A DNA stretch of 64,000 nucleotides from sequence record MT127620, one strand, 5' to 3'. Position 1 is the first letter of the stretch. Each line of letters opens with the position of its first letter. Of this stretch, positions 33,597 to 40,741 are shown in pieces. This DNA is from Escherichia phage PGN6866. Position numbers and translations under genes: made by a program. Below the pieces are notes generated by a model. That model was not told where the DNA came from. It worked only from the letters and a program-made list of their open reading frames with translations, and ran no database searches.

Positions 33597-33881
33597 TTAA
33601 CCTTTTGGGAACGGCATTAAAAATTCCATAGCAGATTTAATTTCATTATTGATTCGTGCATCTCGATAAGAGATAAACTTACCTTTGCTATCACGTAACA
33701 TTACATGAGTTCTAGCCGTTTTATGAGGAAGTAAAGTGATACTGGTTGGGATAGTATCAATCCCCACAGAGAACGAATTAACAGTCTTACTCTTGGTTAA
33801 CAGGTAAGACCAAGTACGTGGTTTCTGCTCTGGGCGGTTAGGGTATGTGTCTCGAATCTGTACCATAGCTAACTTATTCAT
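33597..33881 (-). CDS. Small protein, tandem paralog A (C-terminus ...FLMPFPKG)
   Basis: Shares TART.V.LR...GKFISY......PFPKG pattern with next gene. Confidence 0.55.
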   Translation of the reverse strand: MNKLAMVQIRDTYPNRPEQKPRTWSYLLTKSKTVNSFSVGIDTIPTSITLLPHKTARTHVMLRDSKGKFISYRDARINNEIKSAMEFLMPFPKG

Positions 33882-33882
33882 A

Positions 33883-34137
33883 TTAAACTCCTTTGGGGAA
33901 CGGGATGAGGTTTTCTACTGCAACACGGAAAGATTTTTCTACGTTCTTATTCTTATAAGAGATAAATTTTCCATCAGCTCCTCGAAGGAGTACGTTAGTG
34001 CGAGCTGTATTTGGGTTTTGTTGAATCATAGAACGAATGATGTTCTCTGAACCTCTATGCTTATTGGTGAATTTCCAACTGATAGTTTTACCGGTACGAG
34101 TTACATCAATGATATTTACGATTTTTACAATAGACAT
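33883..34137 (-). CDS. Small protein, tandem paralog B (C-terminus ...NLIPFPKGV)
   Basis: See paralog A. Confidence 0.55.
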   Translation of the reverse strand: MSIVKIVNIIDVTRTGKTISWKFTNKHRGSENIIRSMIQQNPNTARTNVLLRGADGKFISYKNKNVEKSFRVAVENLIPFPKGV

Positions 34138-34206
34138 ATTTATTACCTAAGAAGTTTAATTTGGTTTATATAAAAGAAAAGGCCACCTGATTAGGCAGCC
34201 TTTGTT

Positions 34207-34500
34207 CTAGAGACGAAGCCAAGTTTGATAGTCAGCTTCAGTGTAATGGTTGTTTCGAGAGTTGTTTTTCATTTCCTTGAGAGTAGCTCTCAGGTCAATG
34301 TTATGCTCTCTCCTTGTTCTATTCGGGTCTGTATCTTCTAATAGATGGGAGTGATCACTACAAGAGTAGTGCTTATAGTGGTCCCTGTATCCTCTACTTG
34401 GAGAATACTTGGTCATTAAAGTTGCAACTCTTTTTACACCCTCTGCTTTACAGAATTTACAATAAGTGTGAATTGTACATCTTTTTGTTTCTGCTGACAC
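34207..34500 (-). CDS. Cys/His-rich hypothetical protein
   Basis: ORF with CxxC-like motifs. Confidence 0.5.
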   Translation of the reverse strand: MSAETKRCTIHTYCKFCKAEGVKRVATLMTKYSPSRGYRDHYKHYSCSDHSHLLEDTDPNRTRREHNIDLRATLKEMKNNSRNNHYTEADYQTWLRL

Positions 34501-34510
34501 TATAACCTCT

Positions 34511-34825
34511 TTATGAGCTTAAAGCTCCTTTGCGTGCTCCAGCTGCTTTTCCAGCTCGATCACCACTTTTGCCGCCGTTTGAACGGTTTGAGCTGACTGA
34601 TTCAACACGTAAGTTGCTTGACGCATTAGAGCCTCCAGACTTGACAGCTCGTTTGTGTCCAACGTCTTTACCTCTGACAGCAGCTTTTCCATCGCGCTTT
34701 TCAACGATGCGACGTGCACGGTGGCGCTGAGCATCTCCGCTCTTGCTCCCAATTCCCGTTTCACCGCGCTTGATCGCAGTCCTTCTTTCTTGTGCATAGT
34801 CTCTTTTTCCTACATGATCTGCCAT
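34511..34825 (-). CDS. Basic Gly/Lys-rich low-complexity protein
   Basis: RBS aggag, TAATG coupling to upstream gene; locally GC-rich. Confidence 0.45.
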   Translation of the reverse strand: MADHVGKRDYAQERRTAIKRGETGIGSKSGDAQRHRARRIVEKRDGKAAVRGKDVGHKRAVKSGGSNASSNLRVESVSSNRSNGGKSGDRAGKAAGARKGALSS

Positions 34826-35154
34826 TAGATTTCTCCTGATTCTCTTTGATTAAAGGTGTGGATGGCGTGGCAATTAGCACACAATATCCTGCACTTCCTC
34901 ATCTCTTCTTTTACTTGAGATAAAGATCTGGTGTGCCCTTTGGAGAGTTCGAATGACTTAGTTAATGGATTTAAATGATCAAACTGAAGAGCAGATGCGT
35001 GGCCCTTAAAGCCACACTCAGAGCATCCATAGAATGTTTTAACTCTACGGATAAAAGCTAGTTGCCTAACTCTTCTTTTCTCGTTATCTGCCTTTCTCTT
35101 ATCTCTATTTCCTGGGTCGGCCCATCTACACGAGTCATTGCAAAACCTCTGCAT
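34825..35154 (-). CDS. HNH endonuclease
   Basis: C.EC......FDHLNP...LC.NCH motif. Confidence 0.7.
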   Translation of the reverse strand: MQRFCNDSCRWADPGNRDKRKADNEKRRVRQLAFIRRVKTFYGCSECGFKGHASALQFDHLNPLTKSFELSKGHTRSLSQVKEEMRKCRILCANCHAIHTFNQRESGEI

Positions 35155-35242
35155 TATATACTTCGTTACAAATGGTACCTTACAGGTTTCACATTCCTTG
35201 TGGTATGTTGCTATTTGGACCCCCTTGTGTGAACTATAAGAA

Positions 35243-38851: not shown

Positions 38852-39116
38852 CTAAAGCTGTATCCAAAAATGCTTTCAGGTTTGCTTCAGTCTGCATACC
38901 AGAGAGGCTGTAGTGTGCACCACTGTTACGGTCAGGAACAACGAAAGCAGGGATACTTCGTACACCATACTTAACAGCTTGCTCACGACCATCACCTTCA
39001 AGGATGTTAATCTCTTCCACTTCTACATCAAACTCCTTAACAACCTTCTCAAAGGTAGGAGCCATTGCTTTACATGGAGCACACTGATCACTATAAAACT
39101 TAATTACTTTAGACAT
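38841..39116 (-). CDS. Thioredoxin/glutaredoxin-like protein
   Basis: CAPC active-site motif near N-terminus; 91 aa. Confidence 0.75.
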   Translation of the reverse strand: MSKVIKFYSDQCAPCKAMAPTFEKVVKEFDVEVEEINILEGDGREQAVKYGVRSIPAFVVPDRNSGAHYSLSGMQTEANLKAFLDTALGVN

Positions 39117-39124
39117 GTAAATCC

Positions 39125-39304
39125 TTATGCAGTCAGGAGGTGAAGCAGGAATGGGATAACAACAGCTACGATAACCATGATGGTTGATGCTGTTTGAATC
39201 TCACCTTTCTTATCAGGAGTTTCTTCAATAAGCTTACCAGAAGCCCAATAAATACCACCACCAATAAAGATAGCCCAAATACCCCATACGATTGCTGATA
39301 ACAT
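39125..39304 (-). CDS. Small two-TM membrane protein (59 aa)
   Basis: Hand-translated frame has genome-typical codon usage (ggt/gct/atc/gtt) unlike overlapping track ORF 39166-39438. Confidence 0.45.
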   Translation of the reverse strand: MLSAIVWGIWAIFIGGGIYWASGKLIEETPDKKGEIQTASTIMVIVAVVIPFLLHLLTA

Positions 39305-39364
39305 ATATCTATATCCTTATAAATAAGTTCGCCCCACCTCGGGTTAGGAGACAGGGCGGAGGTT

Positions 39365-39943
39365 TTAGTAAGACACGTCACCACTTGAATGGGACATGTT
39401 GCTCTTGACGAAGTAGCAATATTTGCCAAGACCTTCATTAATTTCTTGAAGCATACTCTGATCGACAGGGTAGGTGGCTAAATCACCATCAAACTCATCC
39501 ATCTTCTCAATAATACACATCAAGGTCATGCACATATCAGAGAGCATACCGTCCATATCTAGGTCAGCATTACCCTCTGAGAACCAAGCATGAGAAAGAT
39601 AGTTAGCTGCTGTAGCGTCCACTTTAACGCAGTGGTAACGCATACGTTCAGCAATACGATCTCCTACCTGTCGTGCGTAATCTTCCAGCTCATCAAACAT
39701 ACCATGAACACCCTGAAATCCTGCACCAGAGACGTTCCAGTGGTAGTTTTTAGCTTTGATATGCAAGAGTTCCATGTTAGCTTGTAAGCAGCTCAGGATG
39801 TGTTCTAGGCTGTTTCCACTAATCATACCTTGCATCGTTTCAAGGCGAGAGATTGATAGGTCGGACCGGTCTAACATGCTATAACTGTCACGACCAATCT
39901 CAGGTAAATCAAAGACATTCTTATGCATTTGGGTTTTCTCCAT
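39365..39943 (-). CDS. Dps-like ferritin-fold protein (start uncertain)
   Basis: YHWNVSGAGFQGVHGMFDELEDY....DRIAER aligns with the Dps HWN.RGA.F..VH.M.D.......D..AER motif. Confidence 0.65.
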   Translation of the reverse strand: MEKTQMHKNVFDLPEIGRDSYSMLDRSDLSISRLETMQGMISGNSLEHILSCLQANMELLHIKAKNYHWNVSGAGFQGVHGMFDELEDYARQVGDRIAERMRYHCVKVDATAANYLSHAWFSEGNADLDMDGMLSDMCMTLMCIIEKMDEFDGDLATYPVDQSMLQEINEGLGKYCYFVKSNMSHSSGDVSY

Positions 39944-40250
39944 CAAGTTCAACTGAGTTAGCAACGTTACGTGCAATATTATCCATTACCTGCTGGGTAA
40001 TTACGATGCAGTTCTGTGGGTCTACTGACTTAGAACGCCCCATTTCAGGGTCATACACCTTAACTCGCTTAGCAGTTGAACCTGTAACCTGAAGAACCTT
40101 CAACAGATACCCCTGATTACCAATAGACCAAGCAACAACATCACGATTCTTGATAAAGCGACCAAGCATATCACGATGATAAAACTGTTGCATCACCTTG
40201 GATTTTGTAATCTCTTCAGTGGGCGGGGCCACTTTACTCAAATCTAACAT
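39921..40250 (-). CDS. Hypothetical protein (109 aa)
   Basis: ORF. Confidence 0.5.
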   Translation of the reverse strand: MLDLSKVAPPTEEITKSKVMQQFYHRDMLGRFIKNRDVVAWSIGNQGYLLKVLQVTGSTAKRVKVYDPEMGRSKSVDPQNCIVITQQVMDNIARNVANSVELDGENPNA

Positions 40251-40322
40251 AACTCTCTCCTGTAAAATACAAATTCTTATTGTACTCTATATACATTTGA
40301 GAGTTATCATATCTACTACCAA

Positions 40323-40532
40323 TCAGTAGTAAAGTACTTTAGACATAAAAGAACCAGTGTTAGGGTCTTCATACCAGCGATGTATGTCAGCGCTTTTTAC
40401 TATTGTGCCCAGAGTCTTCAACTGTTTCTTAGCAATACGAGCCTCTTTGCGAGTGTCAAACAATTTGATGCTATCTTTTCTCATGTGTTGCTCAAGATCC
40501 CAAACAACATGAATAGCCCACATCTTTTTCAT
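40323..40532 (-). CDS. Small protein (69 aa), tandem paralog
   Basis: Same length and AR..KK.L.T...V.S..IH pattern as next gene. Confidence 0.5.
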   Translation of the reverse strand: MKKMWAIHVVWDLEQHMRKDSIKLFDTRKEARIAKKQLKTLGTIVKSADIHRWYEDPNTGSFMSKVLYY

Positions 40533-40741
40533 TAGTAATGCACCTTTCCACTGATATAAATACGACCAGAAGAATACTCCTTGGCCTTATGGATACTGAT
40601 ACTATTGACCACATCACCAGTAAGCATAGTCTTTTTAAAATCTCGAGCTTGTTGGCGAGTGGGTAGTGCAGTCATAGTCATGCCACCTGATGCCCACTTA
40701 ATCTTTGCTAACCAAAATTGTCTCATAGTGATCGGTCTCAT
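40532..40741 (-). CDS. Small protein (69 aa), tandem paralog
   Basis: See previous. Confidence 0.5.
   Translation of the reverse strand: MRPITMRQFWLAKIKWASGGMTMTALPTRQQARDFKKTMLTGDVVNSISIHKAKEYSSGRIYISGKVHY

Follow-up and report, generated by a model that had tools for sequence, protein, structure and literature searches.

Two pairs of small tandem genes in Escherichia phage PGN6866 (sequence record MT127620; a stretch of 64,000 nucleotides was analyzed and is hereafter called the window) are ancient, syntenic, and translationally coupled paralogs under purifying selection. They represent two families of small basic proteins that are restricted to one phage lineage, and they lie within the replication/nucleotide-metabolism block. 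Pair A consists of a gp56-type and a gp57-type gene and pair B of a gp69-type and a gp70-type gene, named after their orthologs in phage phiEco32 (Table 1). The initial annotation, which was made from the sequence alone, regarded both pairs as recent tandem duplications in early regions, of the kind that often marks rapidly evolving host-interaction factors. The feature is real but ordinary, and most of its interpretation as recent, early, and rapidly evolving is incorrect.

The window represents Kuravirus, a phiEco32/ES17-like E. coli podophage. A megablast search with positions 33400–41000 matched 99 phage records, nearly all of them Escherichia/Shigella phages of the phiEco32 group. The best match was ES17 (96.8% identity), which is classified in Gordonclarkvirinae; Kuravirus. 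The genes from approximately 24 kb onward are on the minus strand, and all four open reading frames (ORFs) were confirmed there with the coordinates and lengths initially annotated. The exactly equal length of the two pair B proteins holds for the ORFs as called, but it hinges on the choice of start codon, and many gp70-type orthologs begin at the residue that corresponds to Met6, with a length of 64 amino acids (aa). Direct orthologs are present in phiEco32, ES17, SU10, and approximately 95 other Kuravirus-group genomes (85–100% identity in the closest relatives), and the gene order, spacing, terminator, and P68 promoter in the window are the same as those in the phiEco32/ES17/SU10 group.

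The genes of both pairs are already known from about 100 deposited genomes as "hypothetical protein," each pair is in one PHROG family, and the paralogy is implicit in PHROGs. No mention of gp56, gp57, gp69, or gp70, of paralogs, or of duplication was found in the Kuravirus papers searched. The present analysis adds that the duplications are ancient and fixed, that the copies diverged asymmetrically, and that one copy per pair is dispensable. It also adds members of both families from metagenomic phages of the phiEco32 type, encoded at matching syntenic positions, and finds the adhesin and Cas8 labels of some records unsupported. A function, if found, would fill part of the poorly studied replication/takeover biology of a therapy-relevant group (ES17, SU10, and the BASEL Kuraviruses).

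Paralogy within each gene pair

The two proteins of pair A, for which a shared GKFISY...PFPKG pattern at the C-terminus had been noted, are 53% identical across the C-terminal 40 aa (BLASTP E = 7e-15). Their Smith-Waterman score of 116 was reached by none of 5000 shuffles, which averaged 25 (z = 19.5). When each ortholog group was given its own profile, built from nine genomes, and the profiles were compared by hhalign, the gp56-type and gp57-type profiles matched over 84 columns (probability 99.3%, E = 9e-21), which indicates that the homology is full-length and extends beyond the GKFISY...PFPKG tail. For pair B, BLASTP found 26% identity end to end (E = 5e-5), and the AR..KK...T...V.S..IH pattern described initially is visible in the alignment. 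The Smith-Waterman score of 57 was reached by none of 5000 shuffles, which averaged 23 and peaked at 52 (z = 7.9), and the gp69-type and gp70-type profiles matched over 64 columns (probability 98.1%, E = 1e-13).

PHROGs provides an independent grouping of each pair. Both pair A types matched the hidden Markov model (HMM) of phrog_6814 at full length (profile positions 1–85/86 of 86; E = 8e-37 for the gp56 type and 7e-39 for the gp57 type), and both pair B types did so for phrog_4939 (positions 1–67 of 67; E = 6e-28 for the gp69 type and 9e-28 for the gp70 type); PHROGs lists both families as of unknown function. BLASTP, shuffling, profile-profile comparison, and PHROGs therefore all identify the members of each pair as true paralogs, in agreement with the tandem duplication claimed for both. 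The comparison with shuffled controls, which the initial annotation had proposed as the means of refutation, gave significant similarity for both pairs. That the resemblance arose by chance, or that the ORFs are not genuine genes, might be argued from the low identity of pair B and from the failure of single-sequence phmmer to link its copies at E = 1e-3; however, the shuffle results, the profile probabilities of 98–99%, the shared PHROGs grouping, the omega values of 0.08–0.39 across genomes (see below), the Shine-Dalgarno sites and coupled starts, and the confident structure models leave this explanation practically no weight.

The two families are separate from each other. All four comparisons between a pair A and a pair B protein were negative (z = -1.1 to 0.8 in the shuffle test; hhalign probability <1%), and a relationship between A and B was ruled out by sequence and profile comparison, despite their shared beta-beta-alpha-beta-beta topology.

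Age of the duplications and distribution of the families

Synonymous differences between the paralogs in the window are saturated (pS 0.67–0.76), and their nucleotide identity is 43–55%. Among the C-terminal 41 residues of pair A, 21 are identical, and only 11 of these use the same codon (pS 0.76). In neighbor-joining trees, paralogs from the same genome never group; the sequences cluster by positional type, with one clade per type that spans Kuravirus, Suseptimavirus, and Nieuwekanaalvirus. The saturation and the type-wise clades together indicate that the duplications are ancient and that the copies were kept by protein-level selection rather than homogenized by gene conversion. The tandem duplication of each family is old and predates the divergence of the Gordonclarkvirinae genera. 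These patterns, along with the tandem arrays in metagenomic relatives, contradict the recent origin proposed initially.

In the phage collection searched, families A and B are confined to 98 Kuravirus-group records, which include GenBank/RefSeq duplicates. Full-length matches of the gp70 type were found in all 98 records, those of the gp69 type in 92, and those of the gp56 type in 91; the gp57 type is present essentially everywhere. A search of 5.8 billion proteins returned matches solely on contigs of approximately 60–80 kb, i.e., of phage-genome scale, and these matches have no Pfam domains or fusions. An exhaustive HMMER search with the family A profile against 1.84 billion representatives yielded approximately 28 small clusters, approximately 26 of them additional, with proteins of 79–103 aa. 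All of the distant clusters share one architecture, with an N-terminal half that varies and, after it, TARTNVxLRxxxG(K/R)F(I/V)S(Y/F)...PFP. Three long proteins in the same search (a kinesin and two repeat proteins) were rejected as spurious matches to repeated short hairpin motifs. Wherever the context of distant family A homologs could be read, the genes are placed like pair A, with a gp54-like gene and DNA polymerase A downstream; they occur singly in two of the loci (L009 and L011) and as tandem pairs, again 1 nt apart, in three others (L012, L013, and L014). In L011, which is from a divergent 59-kb metagenomic phage, three tandem family B genes directly follow the dCTP deaminase gene. Taken together, these findings indicate that both families are restricted to phiEco32-like phages.

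Copy number varies among related phages, as the initial annotation had suggested checking, with losses in the LAMP clade and three or four family B copies elsewhere. LAMP has only the gp57 and gp70 types, and its gp56 and gp69 types are gone. EP335 has a single A gene (gp57 type) and both B genes plus gp71, and Bas93 and Bas94 have a single family A match each. The phages with reduced gene content, such as LAMP, fit the 67–69 kb Kuravirus clade described previously (PMC11990801). One copy of each pair can thus be lost and is naturally dispensable. Family B also has two further subfamilies in relatives, which were verified by leave-out profiles (E = 1e-5 to 1e-11). One of these, gp71, extends the tandem array of gp70 and gp69 in phiEco32, Paul, and EP335; it is absent from the window, where its slot is occupied by an unrelated 68-aa ORF. 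The other is a dispersed copy that Paul, EcoN5, and ECBP2 carry between their thioredoxin and ThyX genes; it is likewise absent from the window, which has an HNH_3 endonuclease gene there instead. The 52-aa ORF adjacent to pair A, considered as a truncated B-like protein, had no HMM match.

Selection and asymmetric divergence

Selection was estimated as omega (dN/dS) from pairwise Nei-Gojobori comparisons within the genus Kuravirus. Each pair contains one conserved copy and one that evolves 3–5 times faster at the protein level, and no gene or half-gene has an average above 1 (Table 1). The rapid evolution claimed initially therefore applies in relative terms to the gp57 and gp69 types, whereas the gp56 and gp70 types are comparable to the neighboring genes. 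In the gp57 type, a variable N-terminal half is joined to a near-invariant C-terminal half (TARTNVxLRxxxGKFISY...PFPKG). The SU10 homolog of this type, coding sequence (CDS) 54, was reported to be only 66% identical to that of phiEco32 (PMC4281155). The sequence comparisons indicate that the copies diverged asymmetrically after duplication and that all are under net purifying selection.

Gene context, expression signals, and temporal class

Pair A is flanked by a conserved terminator on one side and by the gp55-gp54-DNA polymerase genes on the other, with intergenic gaps of 1 and 3 nt. The terminator-like hairpin is kept in all 11 loci examined, the changes in its stem are compensatory, and a terminator is annotated in SU7. 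The last codons of each pair A gene also contain the Shine-Dalgarno sequence of the gene that follows. Distant family A homologs keep PFP but not KG, ending in PFPT, PFPE, or PFPV. Given that conservation of KG is confined to the Kuravirus group and that KG overlaps the Shine-Dalgarno sites, it is probably constrained at both the protein and the RNA level in Kuraviruses. It could be proposed from the same overlap that the entire C-terminal motif of pair A reflects DNA-level constraint, such as an embedded ribosome-binding site or regulatory element that was copied along, rather than protein homology. However, such an element covers two or three codons at most, whereas the homology spans 84 profile columns; the codon usage at the identical residues is diverged as described above; and the TARTNV...G(K/R)F(I/V)S(Y/F)...PFP pattern is kept as protein in approximately 28 divergent clusters. 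This proposal is thus very improbable, and DNA-level constraint remains a minor contributor to the last two or three codons.

Pair B lies directly after the dCTP deaminase gene and closes the primase/helicase-exonuclease-nucleotidyltransferase-dCTP deaminase unit, just before P68. Its reading frames are coupled, such that the gp70-type start overlaps the upstream stop codon (ATGA) and the gp70-type stop overlaps the gp69-type start (TAATG). The motif tAATGTAtA of the sigma factor gp36 was reported upstream of phiEco32 genes 6, 13, 26, 40, 58, and 68 (PMC4331800). Based on this location and the position of AAATGTATA in the intergenic block, the latter corresponds to P68, and pair B ends the upstream transcription unit. 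Counts of the gp36 promoter motif across the window showed no excess over chance, and only this site, which has a conserved position, is meaningful.

Two observations concern the surroundings of these promoters. P58, which is known from experiments as a gp36-dependent promoter, is absent from the window and from ES17, where the phiEco32 gene 58/59 segment is replaced by other sequences. Transcription of pair A and the DNA polymerase gene must therefore either read through from P68 or start at an unrecognized promoter. The gp68 ortholog is nearly invariant among Kuraviruses (dN 0.000, dS 0.05), and the adjoining gp69 type has a dS of 0.41. This sharp boundary in divergence exactly at P68 suggests a recombination junction or an unusual constraint on gene 68.

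The published schemes disagree with the initial assignment to early regions for pair A and are divided on pair B, which sits at a disputed early/middle boundary. All of them place pair A in the middle (replication) cluster (PMC4281155, PMC9965538, PMC8948821). Pair B would be early according to the SU10 paper (CDS 69–125; PMC4281155) but middle according to the YF01 and 7-11 papers (PMC9965538, PMC8948821).

Protein properties and possible functions

All four proteins are small (8–11 kDa) and strongly basic (isoelectric point [pI] 9.8–10.8, net charge +6 to +10). Within family A, the conserved C-terminal half is basic even in a homolog that has an acidic N-terminal half. AlphaFold2 (AF2), run with family alignments, produced a beta-beta-alpha-beta-beta-alpha model for the gp57 type (predicted local distance difference test [pLDDT] 83.8, predicted template modeling score [pTM] 0.72) and a beta-beta-alpha-beta-beta model for the gp70 type (pLDDT 83.2). 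Invariant residues in family A are T44, R46, T47, R52, G56, K57, F58, S60, Y61, P79, P81, and G83, and the alternation along strand 3 of the model places T44, R46, N48, and R52 on one face. In family B, W10, T28, R29, R33, K36, and the C-terminal Tyr are invariant across four subfamilies, and R29, R33, and K36 share one face of the single helix in the model.

The leading, though tentative, reading of these sequences and models is that all four proteins may be small accessory factors that act as non-enzymatic binding modules for nucleic acid or an acidic partner in replication/nucleotide metabolism. A binding role is proposed because the proteins are too small and have no catalytic signatures, and a nucleic acid or acidic partner because the conserved exposed residues are basic. 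The binding surface would be formed by T-R-N-R on strand 3 and the GKF hairpin in family A, and by the T-R-x-x-x-R-x-x-K face of the helix in family B. In the gp57 type, lineage-specific specificity may come from the variable N-terminal half.

Several points weigh against these interpretations, both evolutionary and functional. The analysis found no evidence on function for any of the four proteins. Scans of all four against Pfam, NCBIfam, and PADLOC gave nothing above noise, Foldseek searches of the PDB with both AF2 models gave no match at E <= 1e-3, and PDB sequence-profile searches with both families gave best E-values of 0.02–0.05, which were taken as meaningless. Nucleic acid binding is deduced only from charge and residue conservation, and basic surfaces would equally bind acidic proteins. 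The proteome of SU10 lysate does not include orthologs of these four proteins, such that their expression is deduced from conservation, Shine-Dalgarno sites, and omega below 1. Moreover, the neighbor-joining trees were built from short sequences and have no bootstrap support, the dN/dS values come from only 5–9 genomes in non-independent pairs, and recombination among alleles could mimic the asymmetry in rate.

The initial annotation pointed to a different explanation, namely recent, fast-evolving early factors for host interaction, which would include anti-defense factors or inhibitors of host factors engaged in an arms race with the host. This explanation draws on the 3–5-fold faster evolution of one copy per pair and the omega of the gp57-type N-terminal half (0.47). 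It also draws on the discrete divergent alleles among close relatives, the variable copy number, and the placement of pair B as early in one paper (PMC4281155). Furthermore, Gordonclarkvirinae were reported to be unusually resistant to restriction-modification (RM) with no known inhibitor (PMC11990801), and the family A model weakly and non-significantly resembles the small phage inhibitors Dmd and p56. However, the saturated pS, the nucleotide identity of 43–55%, and the orthologs in three genera together with metagenomic relatives speak against a recent origin. In addition, every omega is below 1, pair A belongs to the middle/replication cluster, Dmd and p56 resemble the fold only at E >0.3 and template modeling (TM) scores <0.4, and no PADLOC or anti-defense family was matched. 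Such a role is unlikely, although it is a reasonable alternative.

Neither model has a significant structural match. The weak PDB matches of the family A model, which include archaeal ribosomal proteins, cytidine deaminases, Dmd, and p56, have E >0.08 and TM <0.4; against BFVD, the model retrieved only members of its own family. The T4/RB69 Dmd antitoxin and the phi29-type p56 Ung inhibitor are similar to family A in size (50–90 aa), phage origin, and the presence of a small antiparallel sheet on a helix. Their superposition on the model is not significant (Foldseek E 0.36–0.87, TM 0.31–0.39), they have no sequence similarity to family A, and this fold assignment was rejected. Dmd and p56 are not notably basic, whereas families A and B have a pI around 10–11. 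The best PDB match of the family B model was the core of PsaD (photosystem I subunit D), a four-stranded antiparallel sheet with a helix; with E = 0.02–0.1, a root-mean-square deviation of approximately 8 A, and 10% identity, it reflects a generic topology without a biological link.

A more specific proposal is that families A and B are new-fold DNA-associated proteins that act with the adjacent dCTP deaminase, nucleotidyltransferase, and replication genes and underlie the RM resistance of Gordonclarkvirinae. They might, for example, coat or mark phage DNA or block restriction enzymes, and the fast copies (the gp57-type N-terminal half and the gp69 type) might track variable host targets. The BASEL paper speculated that the nucleotidyltransferase and dCTP deaminase lead to a DNA modification that explains the RM resistance of these phages. 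We regard the involvement of families A and B as improbable. Still less probable is a role as minor virion or structural proteins: the proteins are small and basic, and internal or DNA-associated virion components are often basic, but the genes are in the non-structural minus-strand replication block, and the proteins are not among the 34 detected in SU10 particles and lysate, where the neighbors CDS 51, 55, 56, 65, 67, and 68 were detected.

Some labels in public records were also evaluated. The "autotransporter adhesin" label of several gp57-type GenBank records was rejected for this 84-aa protein, which has no Pfam match above noise and no NCBIfam match. The "Cas8 protein" label of Ptacy phage records (type IV Cas8) was rejected as well; the gp56 type has only a partial match of 13 bits (E = 0.013), and the window has no cas context. 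The "integrase" label on the Dps-like gp67 in relatives looks unsupported.

Table 1. Coordinates of the gene pairs, signals, and other features in the window, and of related features in other loci (locus identifiers given with the positions).
Feature	Position	Strand	Length (aa)	Omega	Remarks
Pair A, gp56 type	33597–33881	minus	94	0.08	Ortholog of phiEco32 gp56 and ES17 gp051; slow-evolving
Pair A, gp57 type	33883–34137	minus	84	0.31 (N-terminal half 0.47; C-terminal half 0.08)	Ortholog of phiEco32 gp57 and ES17 gp052
Pair B, gp69 type	40323–40532	minus	69	0.39	Ortholog of phiEco32 gp69; faster-evolving
Pair B, gp70 type	40532–40741	minus	69 (64 from Met6)	0.09	Ortholog of phiEco32 gp70; conserved copy
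Neighboring control genes				0.00–0.14	
Terminator-like hairpin	34168–34203	minus			11 pairs plus T-tract; directly upstream of the gp57-type gene; scan match
AAAGGAG	33888–33894	minus			K82-G83-(V84) codons of the gp57 type; Shine-Dalgarno of the gp56-type gene (ATG at 33881)
AAAAGGT	33600–33606	minus			Terminal codons of the gp56 type; Shine-Dalgarno of the next gene (start 33593)
AAATGTATA	40290–40298	minus			P68 equivalent; in a near-identical intergenic block after the gp69-type gene (10 loci)
gp68 ortholog	39921–40250				
Neighbor of pair A	33435–33593		52		
ORF in gp71 slot	40738–40944		68		Unrelated to gp71
phiEco32 gp71	L002 7814–8011				Family B member
Family B copies in relatives	L007 2903–3100, 5001–5204; L008 4630–4833; L006 5277–5492; L011 1415–2087				
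phiEco32 gene 58/59 segment	L002 3084–3460				Replaced by 34207–34500 and 34511–34825 in the window
Overlapping ORFs	34511–34825; 34519–34797	minus	104; 92		Different frames
HNH-type homing endonucleases	34825–35154; 35243–35692; 38372–38851	minus			Pfam HNH/HNH_3
"Nucleotidyltransferase"	41488–42915	minus	475		Label used in relatives
Early paralog family	57212–57457; 57454–57705; 59100–59321; 61688–61906; 62154–62414	minus	72–86		Five members
Ejection-protein paralogs	14814–15866; 15879–16847	plus			Late/structural block

Other features of the window

Three HNH-type homing-endonuclease genes are located between the two pairs. Their presence differs among close relatives, which indicates that this stretch is a mosaic, and the third of them sits in the slot of the fourth family B paralog of Paul, EcoN5, and ECBP2. 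The product of the gene labeled "nucleotidyltransferase" in relatives had no Pfam match at E <= 0.01. Between the terminator and the first endonuclease gene, two ORFs in different frames overlap almost completely, and the longer frame (104 aa) is the one annotated in ES17.

Retained paralogs are common in this phage, and two further groups have sequences unrelated to families A and B. A family of five small paralogs with a G..F...G pattern is located in the true early region, and its members match the related phrog_7431, phrog_7832, phrog_6570, and phrog_16423, all listed as of unknown function. These five genes fit the idea of duplicated early genes better than pairs A and B. The other group is a tandem pair in the late/structural block, the members of which are similar to each other (phmmer E = 6e-15) and belong to phrog_4287, annotated as "DNA ejection protein."

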